In this document: one piece after another, positions 11,703 through 64,000 of the stretch
How positions within the stretch are numbered: position 1 is the stretch's first letter
Layout of the letters: each line of letters starts with the position of its first letter
Assembly: GCA_963702425.1 (NCBI GenBank)
Contig: CAVPCQ010000038.1
Coordinates: 4,992 to 68,991 of the forward strand
Source: an uncultured Acidobacteriota bacterium
GTDB taxonomy: Bacteria; Acidobacteriota; Polarisedimenticolia; J045
Length of the DNA stretch: 64,000 nucleotides
Reading direction: 5' to 3'
Made by a program: the position numbers and the translations under genes
Notes under the pieces: generated by a model
Seen by the model: only the letters and a program-made list of their open reading frames with translations
Database searches by the model: none
What the model was told of the DNA's origin: nothing

Positions 11703-13543
11703 ATGACGGTGCACGACTCGCCAGCCTTCATCCTCGGGATCTCGGCCTTCTACCACGATTCCGCCGCCTGTCTCGTGCAGGATGGCCGGATCGTCGCTGC
11801 GGCCCAGGAAGAACGCTTCACGCGCCGGAAGCACGACGCGGGATTCCCGCGGCACGCGATCGACTACTGCCTGCGCGAGGCGCGCATCGGCCCGGACCGG
11901 CTGACCGCGGTCGCCTTCTACGACAAGCCGTGGATCAAGTTCGAGCGGCTGCTCGAAACCTACCTCGCGTTCGCGCCCGGCCGGTCGTGTCCTCCTTCCT
12001 GAAGAGCATGCCGCTCTGGCTGAAGCAGAAGCTCTGGATCGGCGACCTGATCGCGCGCGAGCTGGGCTACGACGGCGATCTGCTCTTCCCGGAGCACCAC
12101 CAGTCGCACGCCGCGTCCGCCTTCTTCCCGTCTCCCTTCGAGCGAGCCGCGTTCCTGACGATGGACGGGGTGGGGGAGTGGGCCACCGCTTCCTGGGGCG
12201 TCGGGCACGGCAACCGGGTCGAGATCTCGCACGAGCTGCGCTTCCCGCACAGCCTCGGCCTGCTCTACAGCGCCTTCACCTACTACACCGGCTTCAAGGT
12301 CAACTCGGGGGAGTACAAGGTGATGGGGCTAGCGCCCTACGGCGAGCCCCGGTACGCCGGGCTGATCTACGACCACCTCCTCGACCTGCGCGAGGACGGC
12401 TCGTTCCGCCTCAACATGGAGTACTTCAACTACTGCCAGGGCCTGACGATGACCTCGGAGCGGTTCCACCGGCTCTTCGGCGGCCCGCCGCGGGCGGCGG
12501 AGTCCGAGGTCACGCAGCGCGAGATGGACCTCGCCCGCTCGCTGCAGGACGTCACCGAGGAGGTCATGCTGCGGATGGCGCGCCACGTGCGGAAGGCGAC
12601 CGGGGAGCGGAACCTGTGCCTCGCCGGCGGCGTCGCGCTCAACTGCGTCGGGAACGGGAGAATCCTGCGAGAGCGAGTGTTCGACCGGCTGTGGATCCAG
12701 CCCGCCGCCGGTGATGCCGGAGGCGCCCTCGGCGCCGCGCTCTTCGCCTGGCACCAGGTCCGCGGCGAGCCCCGCCGCGCGGACCCGGGTCGCGACAGCC
12801 AGTCGGGCTCGTACCTCGGACCCGCGTTTCCCGGCGATGCGATCCGGCAGTGGCTCGACGGTGCGGGCATTCCGTACCGCACGCACTCCCCGTCCGAGAT
12901 CCCGGGCCTCGCGGCCGAACTGATTGCGCAGGAGAAGGTCGTGGGGTGGTTCTCCGGGCGGATGGAGTTCGGGCCCCGGGCGCTGGGGGCCCGGAGCATC
13001 CTCGGGGACGCCCGCAGCCCGAAGATGCAGTCGGTCCTGAACCTCAAGATCAAGTTCCGGGAGTCGTTCCGCCCCTTCGCGCCATCCTGCCTGGTCGAGG
13101 ACGTGTCGGAGTACTTCGAGCTGGAGGTCGAGTCGCCGTACATGCTCCTCGTCGCGCCGGTCGTCGAGACGCGACGGCTCGCGATGAGCGCGGAGCAGTC
13201 GGCGCTGTTCGGGATCGAGAAGCTCAACGTCCCGCGCAGCGACATCCCCGCGGTGACGCACGTCGACTACTCGGCGCGCGTGCAGACGGTCGACGCCCGC
13301 GATCACGCGCAGTACCACGAGCTGATCCGTGAGTTCAAGCGGCGGACCGGGTACGGGGTCATCATCAACACGTCGTTCAACGTCCGCGGCGAGCCGATCG
13401 TCTGCACGCCGCAGGATGCCTACCTGTGCTTCATGCGGACGCAGATGGACGCGCTGGTGCTGGAGGACTGCGTGCTGCTCAAGGAAGAGCAGCCGCCGCT
13501 GAAGGACGACGTCGACTGGAGATCGCAGTATGGCCTCGACTGA
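11703..13543 (+). pseudogene. carbamoyltransferase (NodU/CmcH family), reading frame interrupted by a -1 shift near 11976-11992
   Basis: The first ~100 aa (frame of 11697..12002) read MTVHDSPAFILGISAFYHDSAACLV...FERLLETYLAFAP. The remaining ~515 aa (frame of 11669..13543) read ..SFLKSMPLWLKQKLW..HHQSHAASAFF..GEYKVMGLAPYG... Together they are the two halves of one enzyme. The first frame hits TGA at 12000. The switch lies in gcgcccggccgg (C/G runs). This may be an assembly indel. Confidence 0.8.
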
Positions 13544-13958
13544 GGGGATCGGCCTGCCGGCGAGGCCCGCGACGCGCAGCGGCCGCGAGCTGCGGACGTT
13601 CGGGCTGGTGATGGCGGGAGCGTTCGGCGCGCTGGGTGGCCTGGCGGCGTGGCGCGGCCGGTCCGCCGGGCCGGTCCTGCTCGGCGTGGCGGCCGCCTTC
13701 CTGCTGCTCGGGCTGGCCTTGCCGCGGCTCCTCCGGCCCGTCGAGAAGGCCTGGATGGCGGTCGCGCGGGTGATGGGCGTCGTGATGACGCACGTCATCC
13801 TGACGCTCTTCTACTACCTCGTGATCACACCGTTCGGAATCGCGATGCGGATCGCCGGCCGCGACCCCCTGGGGCTGAAGGCGGCCCCGGCGCGCGAGTC
13901 CTTCTGGGAAGCGGTCGATCCGCAGGGATCGGCCTCCCGCCCGGACAAGCCCTATTGA
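13530..13958 (+). CDS. SxtJ-family small membrane protein
   Basis: 142 aa, overlapping the carbamoyltransferase stop by 14 nt. It has two or three hydrophobic helices and the ..LL.P.EK.WM..A..MG...T.VIL...YYLVITP.G...R..G.DPL pattern I associate with SxtJ proteins found next to carbamoyltransferases. Confidence 0.6.
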   Translation: MASTEGIGLPARPATRSGRELRTFGLVMAGAFGALGGLAAWRGRSAGPVLLGVAAAFLLLGLALPRLLRPVEKAWMAVARVMGVVMTHVILTLFYYLVITPFGIAMRIAGRDPLGLKAAPARESFWEAVDPQGSASRPDKPY

Positions 13959-13989
13959 GCCGGAGCCAGCGGCGGGAGAGAATCCGGAC

Positions 13990-14148
13990 ATGCCGGCTGT
14001 GAAGAACCTGTGGATGATCTGGGACTTTCTCCGGGTCCGGAAGAAGTTCTGGCTGCTCCCGATCGTGGCGCTGCTCCTGCTCTTCGGGCTGCTGATCGTC
14101 CTGACCGAGGGCTCGGCGCTCGCGCCGTTCATCTACACGCTGTTCTGA
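13990..14148 (+). CDS. DUF5989-family small membrane protein (52 aa); not in the supplied ORF track
   Basis: My own translation is MPAVKNLWMIWDFLRVRKKFWLLPIVALLLLFGLLIVLTEGSALAPFIYTLF*. This is the W.FLR.RKKFWLLPI....LL.G.LIVL..GSA.APFIYTLF pattern characteristic of DUF5989, which normally follows SxtJ. It is too short for the track's length cut-off. Confidence 0.6.
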   Translation: MPAVKNLWMIWDFLRVRKKFWLLPIVALLLLFGLLIVLTEGSALAPFIYTLF

Positions 14149-14201
14149 CCGGGCGGCCGCCGGGAGAGGTCCCCCGGGCGGTTTCCAAGGAGGCGAATCA
14201 C

Positions 14202-14852
14202 ATGAGAAGGACGACGATCGTCCTGTCGCTGGGTGTTCTGCTGTTTGCCGCCTGCGGTCCGCGCGAGGACGCGAAGGCCACCGCCCCCGCGTCCCGCGAG
14301 CCGGCGCCACCGGCCGCCCCGGCGCTGGCAACTCCGCCCCCGGCCGCGCCCGCCGGCTTCGACAAGACGCTCGAGCTGCAAGGGATCACCTTCCACGTCA
14401 CCTGCCCGAACGGCTCGTCGCTCAACCAGGTGACGATCACGCCGGCCGGCCTCGAGATCGACAACTCGGCGATGGTGCGCGAGGCGGACGGCACGGTCGT
14501 CGGGGCGGAGATCGCCGACCTCAACGTCGACGGGTCGCCGGAGCTCTACGTCTACGTCCAGTCCGCCGGCAGCGGCTCGTACGGCTCGCTCGTGGCGTTC
14601 TCGGCCAACAACAAGAAATCCCTGAGCGACATCGTCCTGCCGCCGGTCGCCGCCGACCCGAAGGCCTCGAAGGGCTACATGGGCCACGACGAGTTCGCGG
14701 TCGTCGAATCGACGCTGGTGCAGCGCTTCCCGATCTACCGCGAGGGGGACGCGAACGCGCAGCCGAGCGGCAGGACGCGGCAGATCCAGTACAAGCTGAA
14801 GGCCGGCGAAGCGGGGTGGGTCCTCGAGGCGGACAAGATCGTCGAGTACTGA
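14202..14852 (+). CDS. lipoprotein of unknown function
   Basis: AAGGAGG lies upstream of ATG 14202. Lipobox: LSLGVLLFAAC. A Pro/Ala linker is followed by a beta-rich domain (..ADLNVDGSPELYVYVQSAGSGSYGSLVAF..GYMGHDEFAVVE..). The track ORF 14010 starts too far upstream, overlapping the DUF5989 gene. Confidence 0.6.
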   Translation: MRRTTIVLSLGVLLFAACGPREDAKATAPASREPAPPAAPALATPPPAAPAGFDKTLELQGITFHVTCPNGSSLNQVTITPAGLEIDNSAMVREADGTVVGAEIADLNVDGSPELYVYVQSAGSGSYGSLVAFSANNKKSLSDIVLPPVAADPKASKGYMGHDEFAVVESTLVQRFPIYREGDANAQPSGRTRQIQYKLKAGEAGWVLEADKIVEY

Positions 14853-14853
14853 G

Positions 14854-14897
14854 GCGGCGGCATCCGTACCGACCCGGCCCGGTCGGACGGCCGCCGC
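14854..14897. terminator. nested GC-rich hairpin between convergent genes (candidate bidirectional terminator)
   Basis: The outer stem is GCGGCGGC (14854-14861) / GCCGCCGC (14890-14897). The inner stem is CCGACC (14869-14874) / GGTCGG (14881-14886). It lies between TGA 14850-14852 and the minus-strand stop at 14899-14901. There is no U-tract. Confidence 0.35.
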
Positions 14898-14898
14898 T

Positions 14899-15393
14899 CT
14901 ACGTCGAGTCTCGAAGAACGTCGCGGATCGCGCGAAGTTCGGCTTCCACCGTCCTGTCCTTCGGTCTCGACAGAGCACCTTTCACCTCGATGAGCTGGTC
15001 GAGGGCGAGGACCTTGAACAGCCGGTGCTCGACGAGTTCCATCTCGACCGTCTCCAGGTCTGCGTACTCCCCGACGGGCCGAACCTCACGGATGATGTCG
15101 ACCCGCCCGAGATCCGTCGCCAACATCAAGAGCCGGTAGGTAGCGAGGCGCTCGGGGGGATCGGCAAGCTCGCCCAGATCGGGGCGCAGAACGTGCCTGG
15201 GATGAAGCGGACGGAGCGCATCGAGGAGGCGGGCGAGATTCTCGGCGGTCATCGGCGCGGCCAGGTCGAGATCACGGGTCAGCGTGCTGGCGCCGTGCGC
15301 GATGGCAGCGACCCCCCCGATCACGGCGAACTCGAAGCCGGCGTCCTGAAGGCGAGCCAGGAGCCGCTGGAGCCCGGGGTCGAGATCAGCCAT
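14899..15393 (-). CDS. nucleotidyltransferase-fold protein (MNT/DUF6036-like), candidate toxin-antitoxin component
   Basis: 164 aa. FEFAVIGGVAAIAHGASTLTRDLDLAA matches the G[GS]-x9-13-D.D pattern of minimal nucleotidyltransferases. It overlaps the upstream small gene by 8 nt (ATGGCTGA). Confidence 0.55.
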   Translation of the reverse strand: MADLDPGLQRLLARLQDAGFEFAVIGGVAAIAHGASTLTRDLDLAAPMTAENLARLLDALRPLHPRHVLRPDLGELADPPERLATYRLLMLATDLGRVDIIREVRPVGEYADLETVEMELVEHRLFKVLALDQLIEVKGALSRPKDRTVEAELRAIRDVLRDST

Positions 15394-15688
15394 GGCGATC
15401 CGCGCCGTCGGGGTCCAGCGCCTGGGACTTCTCCCTCAGGCGCCGGGCCTCCATCGCGCGCCGGACCGGTTCGGACACGGTGCGCCGCTGGACGTCGTCG
15501 AGGAGCCGGTTCTGCTCGTCCAGGAGGCGGAGCCTCTCCTTCGGTGACAGCGCGAGGTTCTCCAGCAGCAGCGCGACATCGACGCCGGCCGTGACGGCAG
15601 CGTCCCAATCCGGGCCGAAGCTGCGGATCATGCGTCCTGCATCCGCAGTCGTGCGAATGGTGTCGAGTTCAGGTCTCTCGGCCGGCAT
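15386..15688 (-). CDS. small protein (100 aa) translationally coupled to the nucleotidyltransferase; unknown function
   Basis: ATG 15688 (MPAERPELDTIRTT...LLENLALSPKERLRLLDEQNRLL...). It is the only non-shadow part of track ORF 15386..18253, and its stop overlaps the downstream start. Confidence 0.45.
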   Translation of the reverse strand: MPAERPELDTIRTTADAGRMIRSFGPDWDAAVTAGVDVALLLENLALSPKERLRLLDEQNRLLDDVQRRTVSEPVRRAMEARRLREKSQALDPDGADRHG

Positions 15689-15714
15689 GAGGCGCAGGAT
15701 AGCAGCCGGTCCGG

Positions 15715-18151
15715 TCAGAACGCACCCACCGCCACCTTGTAGAACGCCAGCACCGGCCCCGAGCCGTCCGCGCCGACGACCCAGGCGACGCCGGGGTTGC
15801 GGCTGTAGCCGTACGCGATCGTCGCGCTCGACGGCAGCGCACGCGAGAAGAGCAGCGTGATCGTGGCCCCGCTCGCGGTCTGAGAGCTTGGCTGCACCGG
15901 GACCGCGCCGTCGTAAGCGCGGAACAGGCCGGGGATGCCGCCGGTCACGTTCTTGTCCCAGCGCACCTCGATCTGCGTGCGCGCCCCGTCGCTGAACTTC
16001 GCTGCGACCAACTTCGGCACCTGGACCGCCGGCTGCCCGTACGAACCGGCGCGCACCACCCGCGCCAGCCGCACGCCCGCGGTCTTGTAGCCGTCCACGC
16101 TGAGGTGGATCGAGTCCGAGCGCGGCTGGTCGATCAGCGGGATCACGCCGGCGAGGGGATCGAGCCCCTGCCGGCGCTGCGCCTCCTGGATCGGCAGCCA
16201 GGTCTCGAAGTCCTCGGTCAGATAGGTCGCCAGCTGGCAGTTGCCGAAGAAGAGGCTGGGGCTGCCGAGATCGGTGCGCAGGTTCGCGACCAGCGCGCGG
16301 AGGTCGGCGAGGTAGAGGTCGGTCCCGCGGCCGGCGTCCGACTCGCCCTGGTACCAGAGCGCGCCGCGGATCGGGTGAGCGTAGCCCTGCGCCCGGACGC
16401 GCGAGACCGCCGATCCGTAGAGCGTGCCGCGGTTGAACGGGTCGGCCGCGTTGCGCTGCCACTGGCTGTAGAGATTGGTCCCGCCGAGCGGGGCCGGAAT
16501 GATCGCTACCGGCACGCCGACCGTTCTCTCGATCTCCTTGCCGAAGCGGAGCATCAGCGTGTGGAGCGGGGCCTCCTCGCTGACGCGATCGACCTGGTCC
16601 GTGCCGTCGTCCATCGGCTCGCGGGCGCGCTTCCAGGCATAGTCGTTGCCGAACAGGTGCACGCGATCGATCGGCGGCTCGGCCGGTTCGAGCGAGCCGG
16701 AGTAGCCCGACATGTTCGACTGGCCGATCGCCAGGAAGACGTCGCCGACCGCGATCTCCGTCACCGTGTCGCTGCCCAGCACCGTCCCGGCCGCGACGTC
16801 GACGAGTCGCGCCTCGAGGTCGTAGTTGCCGCCCGCCGGGACGGCCTCGAGCGCGAAGGACGCGGTGGCGCCCGCGGGAGCGGCCGAGAGCGGGAAGGCG
16901 TGGTCGGCCCAGTCGAAGCCGGGCAGGGGGGCGCCGTTCGTGCTCACGACGACCCGCACCTCCAGCCGCGCCGCACCGTCCGCGCGGTAAGCGACCGGCA
17001 CCGGCAGCGGGGCGCGCCCGTCCGGTCCGCGCTGGAACAGCTTCCACTCGACGAGGCCGTCGTGCGCCCGGAAGATCGCCAGCGCCGCGGCCGGCAGCGC
17101 CTTCTCCGCGGTGACGCGCAGCAGCGGGCGCCGCCCGTCGACGAGGTCCGAGAGGCCGAGGCCGCGCCCGAACAGGCGGTGATCGTCGGCGATCGTGAAG
17201 ACGCCGACGTCGAGGTCCCAGCCCGTGCCGTTCCAGCGATCGAGGCGAAGCGTCGACTGCGTCCCGAAGTCCTTCGCCAACCGCAGGCGCATCCGGCCCG
17301 GCGCGCCCAGCGAGGCCTGCCCGAGCGCCGTGAACTCGCGGCCGCGCCGCACCCACGCGAACGCGGTGCCCGTCGCGTCGACGCGGAACAGCACCCCGCC
17401 GCCGGCGTTCTCGGCGTAGCTCCCCTCGTTCCAGAGGTTGATCTCGAACTGGGCGGCCAGCGAGGTCGTGTCGAGGTAGGCGACCTGCGCCCGTTGCGGG
17501 CCGTCCTGGGGCAGGCGGTCGAAGACGTCGACGCAGCCCTGGCCCGAGCCGTCGTACGACACGGCGAGGTCGCCCGCGACGTCGCGCACCGCGAAGGTCG
17601 CGTTGACCGCGCCGCGACTGCGTCATGTCGGCCGGGCGCTGGCCCGGAAGGTCACCGTCGAAGGTGTAGGTCTTCGGGTCGCAGGCGTCGCCCAGCCCGT
17701 CGGCGTTCTGGTCGGCCTGCGACGGGTTGGTCGCGCCGGGGCAGTTGTCCCGGTCGTCGCGCACGAGGTCGCCGTCGTCGTCGGCGCAGCGCACGGCGGG
17801 AGCGCGCGGGGTGCCGTCGGAGGCGTCGCCCAGGGACCCCTCGCCGTCGGAGTTCCAGGCTGCGACGAGATAGGAGAAAAGCACTCCGGGGGTGTCGGGG
17901 TCGGCGGCCGACAGGTCGGAGGTCCGGAAGACGAGGCACGAGAGGTCGGCCCCGTCCGCACGTGCGCCGCGGTAGAGGTCGTACCGCTCCGCCCCGGCGA
18001 CCGGGTCCCAGCGCAGCGTGGCGCGGTCGGGATCGACGCGCAGCGTCGGGCCGACCTCCGGGGGGCGCTGGGCCCGCGCGGCGGGCGAACCGAGCGTGCC
18101 TGCGAGCAGGAGCGCAGCGCAAGCCGTACGAGCCAGGCGGACCGCGACCAT
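15715..18151 (-). pseudogene. secreted sialate O-acetylesterase-like (SASA/DUF303, SGNH) enzyme with N-terminal FN3-like module and TSP3-like Asp-rich repeat; +1 frame disruption near 17600-17622
   Basis: ATG 18151 has GGAGG 5 nt upstream. Signal peptide: MVAVRLARTACAALLLAG..ARAQ. Asp-rich repeat: DDDGDLVRDDRDNCPGATNPSQADQNADGLGDACD. The frame then changes (...PADMTQSR | GAVNATFAVRDVAGD...) into track ORF 15715..17589, which carries AIGQSNMSG and LWYQGESD. The second frame has TGA at 17623-17625, so the shift must lie downstream of that. Confidence 0.75.
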
Positions 18152-18253
18152 CGAACCTCCCCGAAGACCCATGGATATACGGCGAACCGGGGCGGGAAGA
18201 CGGCCTTGGTGGCGAAAGCCGGTCGTCCGTGGTCCGCCCCCAAGCGGGCCCAT

Positions 18254-20198: not shown

Positions 20199-21623
20199 AT
20201 GAACGAATTCCCCGAGCGCCACCCATTCGCCGTGCCGGAGATCGACTGGACGGCCGCCCGCGCCCTCGTGCGCGAGCGGATCCGGCGGCAGTGGCCCGCC
20301 GTCGGCGATGCGGAACTCGGCGAGCGGACCGACGATGCGCTGGTCCGGCTGGCACGCCGGCTGCGGGCCGACCTGCCCCCGCCGAGCGAGGAGGCGATGG
20401 CCGGTGCGGTGGCCCGCTCGCTGCTCGAGCAGCTGCGCGGCCGGCGCCGCTGGCTGGCTCTCCACGCCCTCGTCTCTGGCGCGCCCGGCCGTGCGCGCGA
20501 ATTGCCCGAGCCGCTCGGAGATCCGCTCGAGCGCTTCCGCTTCCTGGCGCTGGCGGCGGTCGCCCAGCCGGACGCCGATCCGGGGGCGCACGATCGCGTG
20601 CGCCTGGCGATCGAGGGTCATCCGATGCCTCCCGTCGCGCTGCCGGAGGAGACATCGCTCGAGGGACCGCGCCTCGCGCGCCGGTTCGCGCGCACGCTGG
20701 CGCACGATCCCGCGTTCGCACCGCTCGCCTCCTGGAGCGCCCGCGCCGTGGCGTCCGGCGTACCGACCGACGAGATCGCCGCGCAGGCCTGGTTCGGCGC
20801 CCGCATCCTCCCGTTCCTGACCGGCCTGCTGCGCCCGGCCGAGGACGCGCTCTTCCGCGAGTTCGGCGACCGCGACGCGCACTGCCGCTACGCCTTCGCG
20901 CCGTTCGCGGAGGGGGCGGGCGAGCCCGCGGACGTCGAGGGGCACGTCCCGCCGCCGGTCCTCGCACGCTGGACCGGGGCACCGCTGGATCTCGGCCCGG
21001 CCGAGTCGCACGCCGTGCGCGAGCACCTCGCTGGCTGTGGCGAGTGCCGCGACGACCTGGCGGCGCTCGGATGCGATGCCGGTGCCCTGGAGCCAAGCCG
21101 CACGTCCGCGCGGCGCCCGCCCTGGCCGCGGCACCGGCGTGACCGGGCGCTGACCGGGTGGGCGGTGACGGCGACCGTGGCCGCGGTCGTCCTGGGCGTG
21201 CTGCTGCTGCGGTCGGCGTCCCGGACGAGTCCCGTCGCCGGTGCGGGTGGGCCGGGACCGGCCGGCGGCGCTGTCGCCGCGGTGGAGCCGGTGGGTGCGC
21301 CGCACGTCGTACTGTCCGGTACGAGGCGTCCGCCCGCGTCGCTCTTGCCGCCGATCGCTCTCGCCGGCGGTGAGCCGCTCTTCGTGCGCCTTCCCGACGT
21401 TCCGGCGGCGGTGCAGTCGATCGTCGTCGAGCTCGACGACGCGACGGGCCGGCCGCTGGTCCGCGAGCGCCTGCCGGTGGCCCGCGTCAACGCCGCCTTC
21501 CAGCTCGCGATCCGGCCCGCCACGCCCTGGAGGAGCGGAAACTATCGGCTGCGCGTGCTGGCCGCCGACGGCGAGACTCCGCTGTTCGACCGGCCGCTCG
21601 CGATCCGCACCGCGGGCGAGTGA
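20199..21623 (+). CDS. single-pass membrane protein with zf-HC2 anti-sigma-like motif
   Basis: 474 aa from ATG 20199. HAVREHLAGCGECRDDLAAL resembles the H-x3-C-x2-C anti-sigma zinc motif. It is followed by a TM helix (WAVTATVAAVVLGVLLL) and an extracytoplasmic tail. Confidence 0.5.
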   Translation: MNEFPERHPFAVPEIDWTAARALVRERIRRQWPAVGDAELGERTDDALVRLARRLRADLPPPSEEAMAGAVARSLLEQLRGRRRWLALHALVSGAPGRARELPEPLGDPLERFRFLALAAVAQPDADPGAHDRVRLAIEGHPMPPVALPEETSLEGPRLARRFARTLAHDPAFAPLASWSARAVASGVPTDEIAAQAWFGARILPFLTGLLRPAEDALFREFGDRDAHCRYAFAPFAEGAGEPADVEGHVPPPVLARWTGAPLDLGPAESHAVREHLAGCGECRDDLAALGCDAGALEPSRTSARRPPWPRHRRDRALTGWAVTATVAAVVLGVLLLRSASRTSPVAGAGGPGPAGGAVAAVEPVGAPHVVLSGTRRPPASLLPPIALAGGEPLFVRLPDVPAAVQSIVVELDDATGRPLVRERLPVARVNAAFQLAIRPATPWRSGNYRLRVLAADGETPLFDRPLAIRTAGE

Positions 21624-32350: not shown

Positions 32351-32447
32351 CGAACCTCCGGGTGCGTCGAGTGCCGCCGGGATGATAGCGGAGCGGGAGC
32401 GGCACGCGTCGCCCGCCGGAGGAGAGCGATCCGAGCCGGCGGCCGCA

Positions 32448-32531
32448 CGGCCGCTCCGCGCCGCCGCTCGTCCCGCGGCCGCTCCGCGCCGCCGTTCGTC
32501 CCGCGGCCGCTGCGCGCCGCCGTTCGTCCCG
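32448..32531. repeat. 28-bp tandem repeat, three copies
   Basis: CGGCCGCTCCGCGCCGCCG(C/T)TCGTCCCG occurs at 32448-32475, 32476-32503 and 32504-32531 (the third copy has TG for TC), followed by a partial copy. It lies in the non-coding gap between the divergent tricorn and TonB-C genes. Confidence 0.85.
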
Positions 32532-32557
32532 CGGCTGCCGATACAGGGGGCCCGTCC

Positions 32558-32787
32558 GAATGCACATCCGGCGACAGAGGACCCCCTCGAATGCACACAT
32601 CGTCCCCAGCGACGGCGTGATGACTCCCACCTTGAGCCCAAGTTCACCGCAAAGAGTCGCCGTGCGCCACCGCCGACCGGGTTCCGGTCGCGATCTTCCT
32701 GCCGGCGAGGGCCTGCTCAGCGCGGCGGTGTGCGTTCGAGGGGGTCCTCTGTCGCCGGATGTGCATTCGAGGGGGTCCTCTGTCGCC
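32558..32787. repeat. 40-nt inverted repeat (39/40 match) flanking a 131-nt spacer; the right arm is partly duplicated
   Basis: The left arm at 32558-32597 is GAATGCACATCCGGCGACAGAGGACCCCCTCGAATGCACA. Its reverse complement matches 32729-32768 (TGTGCGTTCGAGGGGGTCCTCTGTCGCCGGATGTGCATTC). The unit TGTGC(G/A)TTCGAGGGGGTCCTCTGTCGCC occurs twice on the right (32729-32756, 32760-32787). Confidence 0.85.
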
Positions 32788-35623: not shown

Positions 35624-35684
35624 CCGCGAGACCTCCGGGAGCGGGATTATGCCCGCCCCGGGGCCCCCCGGCTGCGCCGCCCGA

Positions 35685-35805: not shown

Positions 35806-38800
35806 TCAGGGAGTCGGCTCCTCGCCCGAGGTGCCGGCGGCGTTCTTCGCCGCGACCAGGTAGAACGACGAACCGCTCGCGGCCCCGCCGGTCGTGTCGC
35901 GCCACGCGGCCGACGTCGGTTCGCCGACCGCCCCGTACCCGCCGGTCGGCGTCCCCGAGCGGTAGACCGGGTAGGTGCGGGCCGCGTCGTGCAGTGCGTC
36001 GACCGGCGGTGCGGTCCACGACAGCCGGACGTCTCCCGCCCGCCGCTCCGCACGCAACGTTCCGCCGACCGGGTTGGGCGGCTTCGTCTCCGAGGGCGTG
36101 AACGGGACGCAGCCGTCGAACTGCCGCACCACGCGGACGTCGTCGATCAGCAGCTCGGTGAGCGGGTCGGCGCTGATCTGCGAGGTCTCCTCGGCCTCGA
36201 AGCGCACTCGCATGCTGGCGGTCGGTGTGAGGAGCGAGGTGAGGTCGATCGTCACATCGGTCCAGGCGGCCGCATTCGTGGACAGGTCCTCGATCGTGGC
36301 ATAGGTCGTGCCCCCGTCGGTGCTGACCTTCGCACGCGCGTTGGAGGCTTGCAGGAAACCGACTCCGCTGCGGTGGTAGAAGCGCGAGAAGTACAGCATC
36401 AAACGACCGCCCCCGAGGCCGCTGAAGACCGGGGAGCTGATGTGGACCCGGCCCCGGTCGACGTCGCCGGTGTGGGGGTCGAATCCAGGGCCGACGAAGG
36501 CGTTGCCGGTGACCCAGCAGATCGTGCCGGGCGCCGGCGTGCGGTCGTCCTCGGGCTGGACCGGACCGACGGACGGGTCGGTGAAGCCGTTCGGGTCCAG
36601 CCGCTCGAACCGGCCGCTGATCGTGGTGCCGCCGACGCTCCACCCCTTGTCGGTCTGGAAGTTGTCCGAGAGCAGCGTCTGCTCGGTCGGATCGCCGATC
36701 ACGATCGTGAAGTTGCTGCTCGTCGTGCCGCCATCCTGCCAGCGGGTCGTCAGCCGCAGCGTGACGTCCGGCCCGCACGGGCCGGTGAGCTCCACGGAGA
36801 AGTGCGGTGCCAGCGAGAACGCGCTCGTCCCGGCCGGGATGTCGGGGTAGTCGGCCACGGCGTCGTGGACCACCACGCCGGAGCTGATCGCCGAGAGCAC
36901 CGCGCTCACCGCCGTCGCGCCCGCGCCGCCGCTGTTGACGGCCTCGATCCGCAGGACCGCCGTCTCGCCCGGGTCGAGCAGGCCGTCGCCGTTGCCGTAG
37001 GCCGGGTTCGAGTCGTCGATGACGTGGCTCTTGTACTTGACGCGCGGCGTCGAGTTGCGAAGCTGCTCGCCGCAGATCGCGAGGTCGTCGAGGTAGAAGC
37101 CGGCCCCGGTCGTGCCGCTGTCTGAGGACAGCGAGAACCGGACGTAGACCTCCGACTCACCGTCGGCGAGGCCGGAGATGTCGTAGCGCACCGGGACCCA
37201 GGCCGTGTCGCGCCCGAATCCTTCCCACACGACCTGCCAGCCGTTCGAACCGGCGGTCTCGATCTCGACCCGCGCGATGTCGAAGCCCGTCTCGCTCCTG
37301 AGCCAGCGCGCGAAGCGCAGCTCTGAGTTCCGCAGCGTCGAGAGGTCGTAGGGACCGGCGGTCAGGAAGTAGGCCGCGCTGTCGGAGTAGTTGCCGTCGA
37401 GGTTGGTGCCGTAGACGTTGCTGCCGGTGTAGGCCGCGGTCGGGCCCGGTCCGGACGGGCTCGGCACCCCGAACTCCCAGCCGTTCGTGAAGGCGCCGTT
37501 ATCGATCTGCCAGGCCGGGTCGGCGTCCAGGGTCTCTTCGACCGAGGGACAGGCGACATTCCCGGTGGTGACGCGCAGCGTCCAGCTCCGCGCGGCGCCG
37601 CACGGTTCCGGGCTGCCGCCGAAATCGACGCTGATCGTCGCCTCGTAGCCGTCCGGCGTGCCGGCGGCGAAGGCGATCCGCACCGGGTCGCCGGCGGCGG
37701 CCTCGCGGGTCTCGCCGGCGGCGAGGCTGCCGAAGCTCGGTCGTGCCGTCGAGGATCGTCAGGTACGGGTCGGAGGACGTCACCGTGGCCGTCAGGCCGG
37801 CGAGGGCGTCACCGGTCGCGTAGGCCGAGAGGTAACAGGTCGACCGTCTCGCCCGGGTCGATCCGGCCGTCGCCGTCGCCGCCGCTCTCGACCACCCGCA
37901 CGCCGCGCACGGCCGCGTCGGCCGAGCCGGCCGGGACCAGGAAGACCTCGCGAGCGAACGGCGCGAAGCCGACGTCGGTCGGCCAGGCCTGGGAGGCGTA
38001 GCCGCTCCGCGACGCCTGCAGCGTGTAGCTGCCGGCGAGCACGGGCCAGTCGTAGCGCGCGAAGTCGGGCGTCGTCGTGCGCGGCAGCTCGCCGTTGGTG
38101 AAGACCTGCTCGGCGAGGCCGATGGTCGTCCCGGGCAGCGCAGCGCCGGTGCAGGCGTCCTTCACGTGACCGGTCAGCCGCGGGCCGTCGAGCAGCTCGA
38201 GCGTGTAGCGCCAGCCCGCGCGGGCCCGCAGGACGGTCGTCTCGCGCCACGTCGCGTAGTCGGGCTGGAACCCCTGGCTGTCGGCGTTCAGCTCGTACGT
38301 CACGCCGACCGCCCCCAGCTCGCCGTACATCCAGCCGTCGGTGTCGCCGTCGACCGAGTAGAGCAGCTCCCACGGCGTGCCGAACTGGAACCAGGTCCCG
38401 GCGACGTCGCCCTGCATCCGGGACGCGGCCACGTTGGCCAGCTCGCGGAACATCCGGAAGTCGGGCTGAGCCACGGAGGAGCTCTCGCAGCCGTAGGGAT
38501 GGAGCGTGTACCCGCCGTAGGTGTGGTACGAGATGTAGTAGACGGGGCGCTGCTGCCGGGCGAGGTTGATCAGCCCGATGTTCGTCGGCTCCGAGCCGGG
38601 GCTCGGGCCGCGGTAGGTGTCGGAGCTGGGGCTGCCCGACGAGCCGCCGCAGGCGTTCCAGGTCAGCGGGTAGTTGCGGTTGAGGTCGACGCCGAAGCTG
38701 CCGTCGCCGTTGTTGCGGCGGTTCTTGCGCCAGTTCGACTCGTTGGTGAACACGTAGCTGGCGCCGTCCGGGTTGTGCGACGGCAGGACCCAGATCTCGC

Positions 38801-39443
38801 TCTCGTTGACCCAGCGGGTGATCGTCGGGTCGGTGCCGTACTGCGTGAGCAACTGGTCGATCGTGTCGATCGCAACCTCCGGCGTCATCACCTCGCGCGC
38901 GTGGTGCTGCGCGACGTAGAGCACCGCCGGCTCGTCTTCCTCGACGGCCACGTTGTCCGAGATCTTCATCGCCCAGGCGGTTCGACCCTCGTGGTCGGTG
39001 GCATAGGCGACCCGCTTGGCGAGCGCGGGGTAGGCCGACTCGAACTGCGCGAGACGGGCCTCGAGCTCCGACGGCGACAGGTAGTCCGACAGCGCCTCCG
39101 GCGCGAGCGGGCCGTCCGCCGGCTGCGGGTCGAAGCCGAGCGTCCGCAGCAGCGCGATCTCCGCCTCGCCCCCCATCACGTCGAGCGTCCCGCGCTTGGC
39201 GTTGACGTAGGTCACGTCGAGGCCGCGCAGCTTCAGCTCGTCCAGCAACTGGCGGGGGTCCTGATCGAAGCGGATACGCAGCCGGACCGTCGGGCTGGCC
39301 GGAGTCACGGGGGCCGCGGCTCCGTCCTCTCCCGCCAGTGCGGGCGAGACGGCGAGGCTCGCGGCGGCGACGGCGGCGACGAGAGCGATGAGCAGGCAGG
39401 CGGCGGACGACAAGAGAACGACGAGCCGGGCACGGGTGCGCAT
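35806..39443 (-). pseudogene. secreted M14 zinc carboxypeptidase fused to large beta-sandwich (MAM/LamG-like) region and C-terminal FN3-like module; two +1 frame disruptions (about 37830-37840 and 37735-37758)
   Basis: Frame 1 (37809..39443) carries a signal peptide and the motifs QHHAREVMTPE (HxxE), SHNPDG, DLNRNY, ISYHTYGG. It ends ..GRIDPGETVDL, then runs into TGA. Frame 2 (part of 37499..37783) reads YLSAYATGDALAGLTATVTSSDPYLTILDGTTE. Frame 3 (35806..37683) reads FGSLAAGETREAAAGDPVRIAFAAGTPDGYEATISVDF.... All three pieces read as one continuous protein. Confidence 0.75.
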
Positions 39444-39884: not shown

Positions 39885-39913
39885 GCCGGAGAGATGCGGG
39901 ACGGCGGGGCGGG

Positions 39914-50065: not shown

Positions 50066-52814
50066 ATGACGCAGCGCGCGTTATCTGTAGCCCTTACCGG
50101 TTTGTTCCTGTTCGCGGGACTCCGCGGAGGGACGGCGTGTGCCGCTGTCCGAGCGTCCGGGCCCTCGGGGGCTCCGGCAGCCGGGCCCTCGGCGGCGGAG
50201 GAATCGGTCCGGGCCTGCGCGCGGCTCGAAGGGCTGATCACTCCGGCGACCGCGGCCGGGCGCCTCGCGGCGGTGCCGGCTGCCGAGCGCCGGGCGCGGC
50301 TGATCGCGGTCCTCTCCGCCGACGCAGTCGCGCACGCGGCGCGGGCCACCGCGCAGTTGCGCGCCGCCGGCGGGCGCGACGTCCGGCTGCTCTGGGGCGC
50401 CGGCGTGATCTGCGCGAGCGCGCCGCGCGCCGTGTGGGACGAGGTCTCCCGGCTGGACGAGGTGGCCGCCGTCTTCGACGACCCGCCCCGGGACGAAGCC
50501 GAACTGCTCGACTTCCCGCCTGGCCCGAACGAGGCCGTCCCGCCCGAGGCGCCGCTCGTCGCGCTGCGCGTCCCCGAGGCCTGGCAGCGCGGCTACACCG
50601 GGAGCGGGACGGTCGTCGCGCTGATGGACACCGGCGTCGACCGGACCCACCCCGACCTGGTCGGGCAGATCTGGGTCAACGCCGGCGAGGTCGCCGGCAA
50701 CGGCCTCGACGACGACGGCAACGGCTACGTCGACGATGTGAACGGCTACGACTTCGCCGACCGCGATCCCGACCCGTCCGACTCCGCCGGCCACGGCACG
50801 AACGCCGCCGGCCTGATCGTCGGCAACGGGAGCGCCGGCAAGCAGACCGGCGCCGCACCGGGTGCGAAGCTGATGGTGCTGCGCCGCGGCACGACGCAGG
50901 CGACGCTGTGGGAGGCGAGCCAGTACGCGATCGAGAACGGCGCCCACGTCCTGTCGCAGTCGGTGTCGTGGAAGTGGTCGTTCCTGCCGCGGCCCGACTA
51001 CTCCGCCTGGCGGCGCCAGGCCGAGACGGAGCTGGTAGCGGGCCTGGTGCACGTCAACAGCTCGGGCAACACGGGCGAGCAGCTCGGGACGGAGCCGATC
51101 CCCTACAACGTCGCTGCGCCGGCCAACTGTCCGCCCCCCTGGCTGGGTCCCGAGCAGACGCTCGTCGGTGGAGTGTCGTCCGTGCTGGGGATCGGCAACG
51201 TCGACGCGCGCACGCACGCGATCGTGCCGTCGAGCCCCTACGGTCCCGCGGAGTGGACCGACATCGTGGCCCGGCGCGACGCGACCTACCCCTGGCCGAT
51301 GCCGCCCGCGCACCAGGACTACCCGGCGTGGAGCGGCGCGATCGGTCTGCTGAAGCCCGACTTCGTCGCCCCCGGCGACAACTCGACCAGCACCGCGATG
51401 GGCGGCGGCTACGCGACCTTCGGGGGGACCTCGGCCGCGACGCCGCGCGTCGCCGGGATCCTGGCGCTGCTGCGCGAGGCGGTGCCGCGCGCCACGCCGG
51501 CCGAGCTGGCGCGCGCGCTCTTCACGAGCGCGGCGGACCTCGGTCCTGCCGGCCGCGACGCGCGCTACGGCGCCGGGATGCCGCAGGCCGACGCCGCGAT
51601 CGACGCCGCCGGGCCGCCGCTGTTCGTCGCAGCGGTGACGGTGCACGACGACGGCGCGCCGCGCGGCGACGGCGACGGCGGCGGGGACGCGGGGGAGATC
51701 GTGCGGCTCAACGTGACCGTCGAGAACGCGTCGGCCGGCGCGCTCGCCGGGATCGACCTCGTGCTGCGCGGCGGGACCGACGCGCTCGTGCGCGACGGCT
51801 ACGCGCGGCTGGCCTCGCTCGCCGCGCAGGCGACGGCGGTCGTCGACTTCACCGTGGAGTTCCCGGCGGGGAGCTGCGCGCGCGTTGCGGAGCTGGCGCT
51901 CGAGCTGCGGGAAGGGGGCCGCGCGCGGGTCGAGCCGCTGTTCGTGACGGTCGGGACCGAGACGCGGCAGGCGCTCTTCGCCGACGACGCCGAGCAGGAT
52001 CGCGGCTGGAGCGTTTCCGGCGGCGCGACCTCGGGGCAGTGGGTGCGGCAGGCGCCGGTCGGGACGACGAAGAGCGGCGCGCCGATGAACCCCGCCGCCG
52101 ATGCCAGCCCCGCTCCCGGCACGCTGGCCTGGGTCACCGGCAACGGCCCGACGGCGCCCGACGCCGCCGACGTCGACGGTGGCGCGACGACGCTGACCGC
52201 GCCACCCCGCGACGGCCGCGACTTCGCGCGCGTCGAGCTGCGCTACGCGCGGTGGTTCGCCTCGAACGACGCGGCGAGCGAGGACCGGCTGCTGGTCGAG
52301 GCGACCGGCGACGGGACGGCGTGGCGCGCGATCGAGGAGATCACCGCGCCCGCGGCGGCCTGGCGCGCACGCAGCATCGTGCTGTCCGACCTGCTGGCGC
52401 CCGGCGCGCGCACCGCGCTGCGCGTGACGGTCGAGGACGCGGGGGCGGACGACACGGTCGAAGGCGGGCTCGACGAGGTCCTGCTCGAGGGGATCGCGAT
52501 CGCCTGCACGGAGTTCGTGCCGCCGGTCGGGCCGACGCCGGACGAGGTCGGTGCGACGCTGCGCCTCGCGCCCGCGGCGGGCGGGCATCTGCTGCTGACG
52601 TGGGACCCGCCGTCGGCGACGGGGGGCGTCGATCCGCCGCGCGGGTATCGCGTGCGGCGGTCGGCCGTGGCGAGCGGCGGGTTCGCGGAGATCGGGCGGC
52701 CGCTGGCGGCGCGGTTCACGGAGGTCGACGGGGTGGCGGGGCGGCGGGCTGGTCGGGGGGCTCGTGCCGGGGTCGGCGGCGTTCTACCTGGTGGAGTCGG
52801 TGCGGTCGCGCTGA
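50066..52814 (+). pseudogene. secreted S8 subtilisin-family peptidase with long C-terminal region and terminal FN3-like module; +1 frame disruption within 52716-52757
   Basis: ATG 50066 with a signal peptide. Catalytic triad contexts: VALMDTGVD (Asp), SAGHGTNAAG (His), FGGTSAATPRVAG (Ser). The track frame (to 52966) degenerates after ..ARFTEVDG. The third frame reads ..GGLVPGSAAFYLVESVRSR* with TGA at 52812-52814. This is the same kind of ending as the M14 protein (..SSFYLVAAKN..). The shift lies in G-runs, including G6 at 52755-52760. Confidence 0.75.
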
Positions 52815-57572: not shown

Positions 57573-57573
57573 T

Positions 57574-58061: not shown

Positions 58062-58067
58062 CCCGCG

Positions 58068-58143: not shown

Positions 58144-58149
58144 CGAAGG

Positions 58150-58941: not shown

Positions 58942-58944
58942 GGC

Positions 58945-60062: not shown

Positions 60063-60108
60063 CCGCCGCTTCCCGCCAGGCCGGCCCGGACCGGCCGATC
60101 GAGCCCCC

Positions 60109-62705
60109 ATGACCGACACACCCAAGCGCCCCGTCACCGCGCAGGACCTCCTCGGCCTGCGGATCCCCGGCTCCCTCGCCGTCGACCCGGAGGGGCGCCG
60201 GATCGCCCTGACCGTGGCCGAGTCGGACTTCGACAAGAGCGAGATCCGGACCCAGCTCCACCTCGCGCCCGACCCGGCCGCGTCCCCGGACGAGCCCCGG
60301 GCCACCCGCGCTCTGACCTACGGGCTGGACGACGTGACCCAGCCTGCCTGGTCGCCCGACGGCCGGACGCTGGCGTTCGTCACCTTCCGCCCGCAGCCGC
60401 ACGAGGAGGAAGAGGACGACCGGCGCGAGGACGGCACCGACAAGAAGCAGGTCTTCATCCTTCCCGCCGACGGTGGCGAGGCGCGCCGCCTGACCGAAGC
60501 CGCGGAGGGGGTCGAGCAATACCGCTGGATGCCCGACGGCTCGGGGGTGATCTTCCTCGGCCACGCGCCGCGCCCGGCCGCCGAGCGCGGCTGGCGCCGC
60601 CGTCGGCGCGACCACCACGACGACCCGATCGTCGTCCACGCCGACGTGCCGGAGCACGAGATCTGGATCCAGCCGCTCGACGGCGCGCCGCACCGCGTGC
60701 TGGGCGGCGTCAAGGGGCTCGACGATTTCGACGTCTCGCCCGACGGCAAGTGGCTTGCGTACTCCGCCAACTTCACCGGTCTTCCGGACGATGCGGAGCG
60801 GATGGTGGTCGTGCTGCGTGCCATCGAGAGCGGCGAGGAGCGGCGCGCCAGCGGTGGCCGCGGCGGCGCGGAGAGCACCCCGACCTTCACGCTCGACGGG
60901 AAGTACCTGCTCTTCCACGGCTGGGCCGAGCCGACGCTGCTCTACAGCCGGCAGGAGCTGTTCGCGCTCGACCTCGCGCAGCCCGCCGCGCCGATCCGCC
61001 CGCTGCTGGCGACGCTGGACCGCGACCTGGAGGAGTACGCGCCGCTGCCCGACGGCCGCGCCGTCGTCGCGCTGGCGTGGGGGATGGAGACCCGCCTCGC
61101 GGTCGTCGATCCCGCCTCGGGCGGGACGCAGCTCGTGCCGCTCGAGGGGCGGATGATCACGGAGGTCGACGCGGCATCGAAGAGCGGCCGCGTCGCGGCG
61201 ATCGTCGAGGAGTCCGCGCGGCCGCCCGAGGCGGCTTGGATCGACTTGACGACCGGCGCGCTCGAGCCGCTGACCGACCTCAACCCGCAGGCCGAGGACT
61301 GGCTCCGCGCGCGGCGCGTGCGCGTGGCGTGGGAGACCGACGGGTTCGCGCACGAGGGGCTGCTCGTGCTGCCGCCGGAGCCTCCAGCGACGCCTGGGAC
61401 GGCGCCGCACGCGCCCAAGGCACCCCGAACGGTTCGACGGCGGCGCCGCCCCCCCCGGTCCTGGTCTGGATCCACGGCGGCCCGCACTGGCGCGCGATCG
61501 ACACCTACCGCGTCTACGAGGCCGAGGCTTTCGCGGCCGACGGCTGGGCGGTCTTCATGCCGCAGTACCGCGGCTCCTCGGGATACGGGCAGGACTACTC
61601 GCTCGCCCTGCGCGGCGACCTCGCCGGGGGCGACGTGCGGGACATCCTGGCCGGGCTGGATCGCGTCGCGGCGGAGGGGCTGGTCGACCCCGCGCGCGCC
61701 GCGGTCGGCGGCGCGAGCTACGGCGGCTACCTCACCAACTGGATGATCGCGACGACGGATCGCTTCAGGGCCGGCGTGTCGGTCGCCGGAATCTTCGACC
61801 TGGCGCAGGACTACTCGACGTCGGAGTACGCCAACTGGGAGGTCCACTACCTCGGCGGCCGACCGTGGGAGCAGCCCGAACTCTACCGCGCGCGCTCGCC
61901 CCTGGCCCACGCCGCGGGGATCGTCGCGCCGATCCTGATCGTGCACGGCAGCGACGACGACACGACGCTGGTCACCAACGGCCGGGCGCTCTTCCGCGCG
62001 ATGCAGTCCCTGGGAAAGACGGTCGAGATGGTCGTCTACCCGCGCGAGGGACACGGGATCTTCGAGCCGACGCACCGGCTCGACGCGCACCAGCGCGCGG
62101 CCGGCTGGCTGGATCAGCACGTGCTCGGGCGCGCGCCGCTGCACGTCGCGGGGCGGCGGGTCGCGCTGGAGGGGATCGAGCTGCTGCCGCTGGCGCACGC
62201 GACGCGCAAGGACTACGCGGGGGTGCGGCCGCCGCCCGGCCGCGCGTTCCTGGAGGTGGCGCTGCTGCTGAAGGACACGCGCACCGGCGGCGACGCGCTG
62301 CGGCTGGGCGCAGCGGGGCCCGGGGCGGACGTCGTGTTGGTCGACGAGGCGGGGACGCTCTTCCGGCCGATCGGCGTGCCGCTCGAGGTCCACGGGCAGC
62401 CGGTGCTGCTGCGCGGGCGCGGCGTGGTCGAGTCCTGGCCCAGCGAGGACGGCCGGCCGTCGGCGCTGCCGCTGGCGGCGGTCTTCGAGATCCCCGCCGG
62501 GCCGGGGCTGTTCCGGCTCCAGGTCGCGGGGATGCCGCCGGTGCTGCTCGACGTCGCGCCGCCCGAGGATGATGACGACGACGAGGACGGCGAGGGTGGG
62601 CCGGGCGATGCCGGCGCCGATGCCGGCGCCGATGCCGATGCCGACGCCGGTCCGATGCCGACGGAGAGGACACCCCGTGAACGCCGACTACGCGCGGCTC
62701 CGTGA
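60109..62705 (+). pseudogene. S9 prolyl oligopeptidase / acylaminoacyl-peptidase family protein (beta-propeller + alpha/beta hydrolase + extra C-terminal domain); -1 frame disruption between 61378 and 61456
   Basis: The N-terminal frame (part of 58213..61746) reads MTDTPKRPVTAQDLL..WSPDGRTLAF..VSPDGKWLAY.. through ..FAHEGLLVLPPE. The C-terminal frame (60750..62705) reads ..PPPPVLVWIHGGPHW.., VGGASYGGYL (GxSxGG), LIVHGSDDD, YPREGHGI. A C8 homopolymer lies at 61449-61456, in the switch zone. Confidence 0.8.
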
Positions 62706-64000
62706 GCGGCTGGCCGAGGTCCAGGACCTCTCCTCCGCGCAGGCGCTCCTGGAGTGGGACCAGCGCACGATGATGCCGGCGCGCGGCAGTTCGGCGCGGG
62801 CCGAGGCGCTGGCGACGGTCGTCAAGCTGGGCTTCGAGCGCTTCGCGTCGGACGAGGTCGGCGCGCTGCTCGACGCGCTCGGGCCGTGGGCGGCGGCGCT
62901 CCCGTACGAGAGCGACGAGGCGTCGCTGGTCCGCGTGACGCGCCGCGAGTACGACAAGGCGCGCCGCGTGCCGGCGGCGCTCAAGGCGGAGATCGCGCGG
63001 ACCGCGGCGATCGCCGGGGACGCATGGATCGAGGCCCGCAAGGCCTCCGACTTCGCCGCCTTCCGGCCGCACCTGGAGCGGATCATCGCGCTCAAGCGCG
63101 AGTACGCGGCCTGCCTCGCCGCGCCGGGGACCGTTCCCTACGATGCACTGCTCGACGACGACGAGCCGGGCTTCACCTCGGCCGCGGCGGCGCGGATGTT
63201 CGACGCGCTGGGGGCGGGATTGACGCCGCTGCTCGACACCGTCCGGTCGCGCACGGGCGCCGTCGACGAGCGCCTGCTCGCCGGTCACTTCCCGGCCGAC
63301 CGGCAGCGCGCGTTCTGCCTCACAGTGCTGCGCCGGATCGGCTTCGACGACGAAGGGTTCCGGCTCGACGTCTCGGCCCACCCGTTCGAGACGAGAATGT
63401 CCGCGGGCGACGTCCGCATGACGACGCGCTACGACGAGAGCCGGCTGAGCGACGCGTTCTTCGGCTGCGTCCACGAGCTGGGCCACGCGCTCTACGAGAG
63501 CGGGATCAACCCAGCGCTGGCGCGTACGCCGCTCGATCACGGGACCTCGATGGGGGTCCACGAATCGCAGAGTCGGCTCTGGGAGAACGTCGTCGCGCGC
63601 GGGCTGCCGTTCTGGCGGTACGCCTACCCGGGGCTGCAGCGGGCCTTCCCGGAGCCCTTCGAGCGCGTCCCGCTCGAGGCGTTCTGGCGCGCGATCAACA
63701 GGGTCGAGCCGTCGCTGATCCGGGTCGAGGCCGACGAGGTGACCTACAACCTGCACGTGCTGCTGCGCTTCGAGCTGGAGCGCGCGCTGATCGCGGGCGA
63801 CCTGGCAGTGGCCGACCTCCGGCCGCGTGGAACGAGGCGATGCGGAGGAACCTCGGCATTGCGGTCCCCGACGACCGGCGCGGCGTGCTGCAGGACATCC
63901 ACTGGTCGCAGGGGGACTTCGGCTACTTCCCGACCTACACGCTGGGGAACGTGATCGCGGCGCAGCTCTGGGAATCCGCGACGGCCGAGCTGCCGGGGCT
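62677..64000 (+). pseudogene. M32 carboxypeptidase (Taq-type), 3' end beyond the window; -1 frame disruption at ~63817-63822
   Basis: GTG 62677 (GGAGAGGA upstream). Motifs seen: LLEWDQRTMMP, HPF, CVHELGHALYE (HExxH), GVHESQSRLWEN. The frame breaks after ..GDLAVADL. The next frame reads (P)AAWNEAMRRNLGIAVPDDRRGVLQDIHWSQGDFGYFPTYTLGNVIAAQLWE.. to the window end. Adding one C to the CC at 63819-63820 would restore the frame. Confidence 0.8.

Follow-up and report, generated by a model that had tools for sequence, protein, structure and literature searches.

Residual indels in MAGs assembled from Nanopore reads alone (metaFlye plus Medaka), as revealed by IDEEL-type tests for truncated proteins, resemble what we describe here in that changes of one or two bases split conserved genes. 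Such errors are worse at low coverage and fragment gene calls; they also appear in MFD-LR sister contigs of our window, by which we mean the whole 64,000-nucleotide stretch that was analysed. R10.4 bins below about 40x require short-read polishing, because indels fragment their gene calls (PMC9262707). The classic description of Nanopore indels stresses long homopolymers, whereas here one event lies in a run of six or more bases, on a platform that is itself presumed. Genuine frameshift pseudogenes of bacteria, as described from genomes in reductive evolution, likewise combine small-indel breaks of open reading frames with homology on both sides, but the genes in the window differ in showing no nonsense codons, IS elements, deletions, relaxed selection or independent sighting of the truncated alleles. 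Programmed frameshift and phase-variable loci share with the window a frame that changes within a gene, and the window does contain one C8 tract, but it has no conserved slippery site or tract. Recoding is used by prfB, dnaX and IS transposases, and to our knowledge none of the six gene families affected here is known for it.

We consider the frame breaks to be consensus indel artefacts of long-read assembly, with gene inactivation not behind them, at a probability of roughly 85%. At least eight net frame disruptions, made up of at least ten single-base events, occur over 59 kb of coding sequence and affect six genes (Table 1). All seven frame switches of the original prediction were recovered by a GC3/GC2 frame map, three-frame views and Pfam, each on one strand, and an eighth was added in the tail of the S9 gene. 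The accompanying claim, that both halves carry family motifs and read as one protein once shifted, also stands: in all six genes a single Pfam model or domain architecture runs on across the switch above the gathering score, and full-length homologues exist. Since the remaining 37 or so genes of the window each keep to one frame with full domain coverage in Pfam, the switches are not due to chance. Off-frame stops are rare in a genome of 72% GC, so that one gene is seen as long clean pieces in two or three frames. As had been predicted, other decay is lacking: the pieces of the six split genes, each translated in its proper frame, are all free of in-frame stops, no large deletion was seen, and no scan of the window gave a Pfam match to a transposase.

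Table 1. Disrupted genes and sites of frame disruption in the window.
Feature	Position	Strand	Description
NodU/CmcH-type carbamoyltransferase (CT) gene	11703..13543	+	about 613 aa repaired; now split into a stub of 99 aa and the C-terminal remainder
CT disruption	11979..11985	+	window 2 nt longer than L009 (alignment)
TSP_3 + SASA (sialate O-acetylesterase-like) gene	15715..18151	-	811 aa repaired; signal peptide; Pfam
SASA disruption	17613..17617 (refined 17616)	-	1 extra nt plus substitution
M14 carboxypeptidase gene	35806..39443	-	1211 aa repaired; signal peptide; Pfam
M14 first +1 shift	37833	-	one extra base, no homopolymer; CTG TTC CTG (L007) vs CTGTTACCTC (window)
M14 second +1 shift	37736..37740	-	one extra base plus substitution
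S8 subtilase gene	50066..52813	+	signal peptide; Pfam, three-frame view; intact single ORF in L001
S8 disruption	52740..52746	+	two single C's lost 5 nt apart; window 2 nt shorter than L001
S9 prolyl-oligopeptidase-family gene	60109..62680	+	PD40 propeller and Peptidase_S9 (Pfam); no obvious signal peptide
S9 linker -1 shift	61408..61456	+	window 1 nt short in or near C8 run (61449-61456)
S9 tail disruption (additional eighth site)	62646..62659	+	window +5 nt vs L001
M32 (Taq-type) carboxypeptidase gene	62677..64000	+	continues past window end
M32 -1 shift	63819	+	base missing: GAC CTG CCT/CCC (L001, L002) vs GACCT-CCG (window)

Further evidence comes from base-level alignment with related contigs, which are 97% (L008), 92% (L001 and L009) and 87% (L007) identical to the window, together with L002 and L010. 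At none of the disrupted sites do the relatives lose the frame, and they encode each gene as a single continuous ORF. L001 and L009 belong to an MFD-LR MAG, a Nanopore-only metaFlye/Medaka assembly. L007 and L008 share its ERZ series and bear flye-style names; the sister contigs named in this style derive from ENA analyses ERZ25039503 and ERZ25039459.

In the carbamoyltransferase gene, Carbam_trans_N positions 2-86 are matched in one frame, and positions 124-346 and Carbam_trans_C in the next; the stub is among the called proteins on record. The original prediction had described all shifts as single-base, which holds for the first M14 site, the S9 linker and M32, while the carbamoyltransferase has a net excess of two nucleotides and the S8 gene a net deficit of two. 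The former is most easily understood as a pair of 1-nt insertions, with the extra G at 11979/80 and the extra T at 11985; removing both gives APAGVSSFLK, the same as in L009, with only two synonymous differences left. In the SASA gene, the signal peptide and TSP_3 precede the switch and the SASA domain follows it (Pfam), and some 80 homologues, with lengths of roughly 800-812 aa, cover 95-100% of the repaired protein, one of them from isolate Mor1. Here the coding strand reads CAG TAC GGC in L009 and L010 and CAG TCGC GGC in the window. The predicted +1 shift is thus correct as to one extra base, at this site as at the second M14 site, but in both a substitution accompanies it.

The M14 gene is publicly called as proteins of 544 and 625 aa, both of which are on record as split products. 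M14 and CarboxypepD_reg domains are followed, beyond the switch, by a MAM-like C-terminal part, and the repaired query is matched from end to end by over 50 homologues with lengths of about 1180-1210 aa; P0304, from the L001 genome, aligns over residues 1-1211 at 91.7% with 2 gaps. On the coding strand the first site changes CTGTTCC to CTGTTACC, and the second GCC to GAGC (ACC GCC TTT in L007 vs ACC GAGC TTC in the window). Even the segment of 33 aa in the middle frame aligns to eight homologues and has a dN/dS of 0.13. In the S8 gene, the true C-terminus, SAAFYLVESVRSR, ends at a stop at 52813, and the deposited ORF continues to 52966, giving the mis-extended product of 966 aa that is on record. 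L001 and L008 read GGGCGCGGCCGGGC where the window has GGG-GCGGC-GGGC. L008, the sole same-species sequence, which covers this one site and is noisy itself, retains both C's and has its own loss of 1 nt a few bases further on.

The S9 gene has its PD40 propeller in one frame and Peptidase_S9 in the next (Pfam), is a single-frame ORF in L001 and L002, and is on record as a truncated product of 545 aa. A -1 shift had been placed in a zone containing the C8 run; the window is indeed 1 nt short there, within the narrower interval of Table 1, and in this length-variable linker L001 homology and codon usage place the shift differently. Such a run could slip, and it is the one feature that might favour a biological use of the shifts, through programmed ribosomal frameshifting, transcriptional slippage or phase-variable switching at repeat tracts. 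All six proteins are single-frame in relatives with no conserved frameshift signal, seven of the eight sites have neither a homopolymer of six or more nor a slippery heptamer, and L001, L002 and L006 have an interrupted version of the C8 tract (CCGCCGCC or CCGCCACC). Because conservation is lacking, we reject programmed frameshifting and phase variation, and regard any such use as exceedingly improbable.

At the end of the S9 gene, adding 1 nt gives a tail of DADGEDTP followed by a stop, whose TGA then overlaps the GTG start of the M32 gene; the same overlap occurs in L001 (GTGA) and L002 (ATGA). The M32 gene, intact in both of these relatives, matches Peptidase_M32 positions 2-375 in one frame and 375-433 in the other. 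A JGI metagenome scan with the repaired M32 query found relatives that were only about 50% identical and no close ones, and in nearly all of 80 JGI loci the match continues through the junction.

The anatomy of the events is itself informative. Several seemingly single shifts are compound, consisting of two 1-nt indels 5 nt apart (carbamoyltransferase and S8) or of an indel combined with a substitution (SASA and the second shift of M14), and to judge from the sequence this looks like consensus error and would be atypical for mutation. The indels had been described as lying often in short G/C runs, but they are mostly outside homopolymers: a run of six or more bases is found at one of at least ten events, the C8 of S9, and the window holds 38 such runs. 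The profile therefore differs from the textbook homopolymer pattern. Isolated, paired or complex events in a GC-rich context suggest low depth or strain mixture. In such a scheme, the source would be an uncultured Acidobacteriota population whose metagenome was assembled from long reads, and the contig most likely a lightly polished, Nanopore-only metaFlye product, a technology that we infer; where read depth was low or close strains were mixed, the consensus may have gained or dropped single bases, and the reads would presumably not support the indels.

Alternatively, some or all of the indels may be genuine and very recent frameshifts that mark young pseudogenes and perhaps reflect loss of costly degradative enzymes, a reading that has in its favour that the indels stand in the deposited sequence and that the C8 tract of S9 is a natural hotspot for slippage. 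The selection data argue against it. Downstream of the shifts dN/dS is 0.10-0.25, indistinguishable from the 0.02-0.27 upstream (intact control genes, about 0-0.14; deliberately wrong frames as a negative control, 2.6-4.8), although low values are also compatible with very recent real mutations. The pieces beyond the shifts are under normal purifying selection, without relaxation. Eight disruptions unaccompanied by nonsense mutations, IS insertions or deletions also argue against genuine frameshifts, and paired 1-nt indels 5 nt apart are improbable as mutations. Moreover, every truncated product is recorded for a single contig, the window's own of 68,991 nt, which is listed under the same NCBI and ENA sources as the MFD MAG, and at the S8 site L008, of the same species, has a different sequence. 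We therefore think genuine frameshifts unlikely, although at individual sites, above all the C8 run, a recent one may be real.

The original prediction counted five of the six affected genes as secreted hydrolases, which is overstated: read from sequence, an obvious signal peptide is present in SASA, M14 and S8 only, with none in S9 and M32. Hydrolases are mildly enriched among the disrupted genes, as a genuine loss might lead one to expect, but the bias is marginal (p ~0.045 per gene). The disrupted genes are long (mean 2389 nt vs 1381 nt), and their placement, for which scaling with gene length had been raised as a check, is consistent with a length-weighted random model (p = 0.06), whereas an unweighted one is rejected (p = 0.0017).

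Sister contigs carry breaks of the same type elsewhere along their sequence, in some cases within genes that are also broken in the window. L009 is broken in a histidine kinase gene (7632), the carbamoyltransferase (12868), PliI (14826) and SASA (16784 and 16835); L007 in tricorn/S41, amino-acid permease, MacB and PALP genes; and L008 three times within S8 (50517, 52031 and 52669). That carbamoyltransferase and SASA are broken elsewhere in a 92% relative could be read as parallel loss. Were the indels real, this soil population would very recently and in parallel have inactivated a set of hydrolases that degrade peptides and glycans (SASA, M14, S8, S9 and M32) and the carbamoyltransferase, much as 'cheater' or Black-Queen-type populations shed degradative enzymes that are costly to make; we hold this to be very improbable. 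The relatives' breaks also strike genes of a housekeeping type, namely those for the histidine kinase, PALP enzyme, amino-acid permease and MacB, and are confined to Nanopore-style contigs, with zero in the shared genes of L002 and L010, which bear short-read-style names. The 17 kb of L001 show no coding frameshift, and thus the error rate across such assemblies is uneven. With relatives in frame, events clustered or complex and sister Nanopore contigs similarly broken, consensus indel errors of the uncorrected long-read type remain the preferred explanation, as originally proposed. The six genes, namely those for the carbamoyltransferase, the SASA esterase and the M14, S8, S9 and M32 peptidases, are thus probably intact and functional in the organism itself, as far as sequence can tell.

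Artefacts of this kind are ordinary, and their relevance lies in annotation, so that the main value of our analysis is in quality control. The split products already on record for the window's contig bear out the expectation that annotation would split or truncate these genes: public protein sets contain wrong calls for about 14% of the contig's genes (6/43), in the form of stubs, halves or mis-extended ORFs. For an uncultured Acidobacteriota lineage, this biases the inventories of peptidases and CAZymes, the number of pseudogenes counted and the clustering of proteins. In very GC-rich genomes, indel errors leave long open frames, and gene callers may accept proteins with a wrong terminus as complete. 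Because the same problem exists in sister contigs, comparisons of gene loss across these long-read MAGs need read-level checks.

Other candidates for disruption were set aside. The regions 13999-14852, 20199-21623 and 39513-40978, considered as hidden frameshifts, are separate or intact genes; the indel at 14826 belongs to L009 and is not a break in the window; and the region at 32.2-33.1 kb, considered as a broken gene, has no codon periodicity and contains repeats. An Rfam search found nothing, and a tRNA-Val called by ARAGORN (34443-34539) sits within a beta-lactamase-family gene and is probably spurious.

The window has a GC content of 72% and consequently carries long open reading frames in all six frames; we assigned coding frames by GC3/GC2 periodicity. 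Some 93% of the sequence is taken up by about 43 genes, and relatives place it in an uncultured lineage of Acidobacteriota. The contig to which it belongs is 68,991 nt in length, with NCBI and ENA as sources. At every site where the original prediction had proposed a shift, the frame map shows a same-strand switch, three-frame views show the protein continuing in the next frame, and Pfam domains run on across the break. In the NodU/CmcH-type carbamoyltransferase gene (CT), Carbam_trans_N 2-86 lies in one frame and 124-346, with Carbam_trans_C, in the next, and in the M32 carboxypeptidase gene Peptidase_M32 2-375 is followed by 375-433 one frame over. The switch separates a PD40 propeller from Peptidase_S9 in the S9 gene, a signal peptide and TSP_3 repeat from the SASA domain in the esterase-like gene (SASA), and M14 plus CarboxypepD_reg from a MAM-like C-terminal part in the M14 gene. 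After the S8 subtilase body comes a short C-terminus that closes with AAFYLVESVRSR and a stop at 52813; the ORF downstream is a separate Kelch/MopE/PKD/CARDB gene. The remaining genes scanned have a single reading frame and good domain coverage.

Homology indicates that the pieces form single genes. Dozens of proteins of ~1180-1210 aa match 96-100% of the length of M14 with its frame restored (1211 aa); eight homologues match its 33-residue middle-frame stretch position by position, and the alignment to the ortholog in the nearest genome spans 1-1211 with 91.7% identity and two gaps. About 80 proteins of roughly 800-812 aa cover repaired SASA (811 aa) over its full length, one of them encoded by the cultured isolate Acidobacteria bacterium Mor1. 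Of the 80 metagenome loci that a JGI scan returned, nearly all span the repaired M32 junction.

Syntenic DNA, obtained by scanning genomes once and by looking up several contigs, resolves the individual lesions. L001 reads S8, S9 and M32 each in one frame, as L002 does S9 and M32, and among all indels listed between the window and L001, the uncompensated coding ones not a multiple of three are the three predicted sites and one in the S9 tail. CT is 2 nt longer than in L009; deleting one G and, 5 nt away, one T yields APAGVSSFLK, as in L009, leaving two synonymous differences. SASA has TCGC where L009 and L010 have TAC. In M14, CTGTTCC has become CTGTTACC and GCC has become GAGC. S8 lacks two lone Cs, 5 nt apart, that are present in L001 and the conspecific L008; L008 in turn has lost one base itself, a few nt further on. 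An M32 CTG codon lacks its G. In the S9 linker, a stretch of variable length that ends in a C8 run, the window lacks 1 nt; by homology the shift falls near that run, by codon usage at an earlier point.

All seven predicted disruptions were thus confirmed, and the S9 tail adds an eighth. In L001 and L002 the stop codon of S9 and the start codon of M32 overlap, as GTGA and ATGA respectively. The window retains DADGEDTP, a stop and GTGA, but in a different frame from the S9 body, and S9 as written continues into M32 for 24 codons, in a frame whose GC3 is poor; one added base restores the conserved stop-start arrangement. This conserved 4-nt overlap suggests, from sequence, that the two peptidases may be translationally coupled.

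The flye-style contigs L007, L008 and L009 carry their own 1-nt frame breaks at places intact in the window: in L007 in tricorn/S41, amino-acid permease, MacB/FtsX and PALP-enzyme genes, in L008 at three positions in S8 (with a noisy contig end), and in L009 at sites tabulated below. The window and L009 both have breaks in CT and SASA, at different positions. Genes are full-length in L002 and L010, whose names are of short-read style. MFD-LR MAGs are Nanopore-only, and R10.4 bins below ~40x require polishing with short reads, since their gene calls are fragmented by indels (PMC9262707). From the shared sources (NCBI, ENA), the conspecific ERZ25039459 contig and the same type of lesion, we infer the same type of assembly for the window. 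The reading favored in the original prediction, consensus indel errors, is supported by the in-frame relatives, the low downstream dN/dS and the similar breaks in flye-style contigs, with a probability of about 0.85.

Genuine recent frameshifts seem improbable overall, although one or another of the sites may be real. Nei-Gojobori dN/dS against relatives is 0.10-0.25 for downstream and 0.02-0.27 for upstream pieces, about 0-0.14 in intact control genes and 2.6-4.8 for two segments read in wrong frames. No piece read in its proper frame contains an in-frame stop. With selection normal and such stops absent, any inactivation would need to be very recent. The bias towards hydrolase genes, for which inactivation had been kept in play, is statistically marginal (per-gene p about 0.045, in a category picked post hoc). 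The lack of conservation contradicts both programmed frameshifting and phase variation.

Affected genes average 2389 nt versus 1381 nt for all genes. An unweighted draw is unlikely (p = 0.0017) and per-base random placement is compatible (p = 0.06), in line with scaling with gene length. The proposed association with short G/C runs did not hold for most sites: the C8 run lies at a shift, but it is the only one of 38 homopolymers of at least 6 bases to do so, and homopolymers therefore do not account for the whole indel profile. Low depth or a mixture of strains is suggested by the events that are paired or complex.

The frame breaks are most probably not a real biological feature; their value is as an annotation warning. 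As anticipated, public records contain the split or mis-extended products, and each occurs on the window's contig only. At 72% GC, off-frame stops are so scarce that wrong frames run on over long distances, and gene callers can therefore output full-length-looking proteins with wrong termini.

Coordinates of genes, shifts, syntenic spans and other features
Feature	Position	Strand	Remarks
CT gene	11703-13543	+	public product a 99-aa stub
CT downstream frame	11669-13543	+	open ~100 codons 5' of shift
CT, SxtJ-like (PF19588) and DUF5989 (PF19451) genes	11703-14148		three-gene cluster kept in L009
SASA gene	15715-18151	-	public product 624 aa
SASA upstream frame	15386-18253	-	open 743 codons beyond shift
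28-nt GC-rich unit	32435-32541		four tandem copies
Inverted repeat, 56 nt	32543-32787		89% complementary, arms 129 nt apart
Segment without counterpart in L007	32.26-33.9 kb		nitroreductase/Fer4 genes in L007
Beta-lactamase-family gene	33917-35647
ARAGORN tRNA-Val(GAC), 97 nt	34443-34539	-	within beta-lactamase-family gene
M14 gene	35806-39443	-	public products 544 + 625 aa
S8 gene	50066-52813	+	public product 966 aa
Kelch-repeat/MopE/PKD/CARDB gene (3 kb)	53013-55688		GC3 lower, 0.86
S9 gene	60109-62680	+	public product 545 aa
S9 linker shift	61408-61456
S9 tail disruption	62646-62659
Overlap of S9 stop and M32 start (GTGA)	62673-62685
M32 gene	62677-64000	+
L009 1-nt breaks (window equivalents)	7632; 12868; 14826; 16784 and 16835		histidine kinase; CT; PliI C-terminus; SASA
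L009 extra segment (~1.3 kb)	L009 5078-6013		311-aa gene
L001/L009	47-64 kb and 6-27 kb		MAG MFD02979.bin.1.81, 3.27-Mb contig; ~92% identity
L008	40-56 kb		ERZ25039459 contig_83021; 97% identity, same species
L007	25-41 kb		ERZ25039459 contig_72656; ~87% identity
L002			Prado002 scaffold; ~87% identity
L010			JGI contig; ~83% identity

Several segments vary among the loci. The Kelch/MopE gene, between S8 and an amino-acid permease, is absent from L001 (92%) and L008 (97%), where the flanks at 52805 and 55866 are directly joined, and L002 has a different insert of ~5.5 kb there; by sequence comparison, the position looks like a strain-variable insertion hotspot. The tandem units and, after them, the inverted repeat lie in a noncoding stretch that lacks codon periodicity and has no Rfam match. 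The tRNA-Val(GAC) call is probably a false positive. The extra segment of L009, between MBL-fold and DUF6982 genes, is absent from the window and L010.
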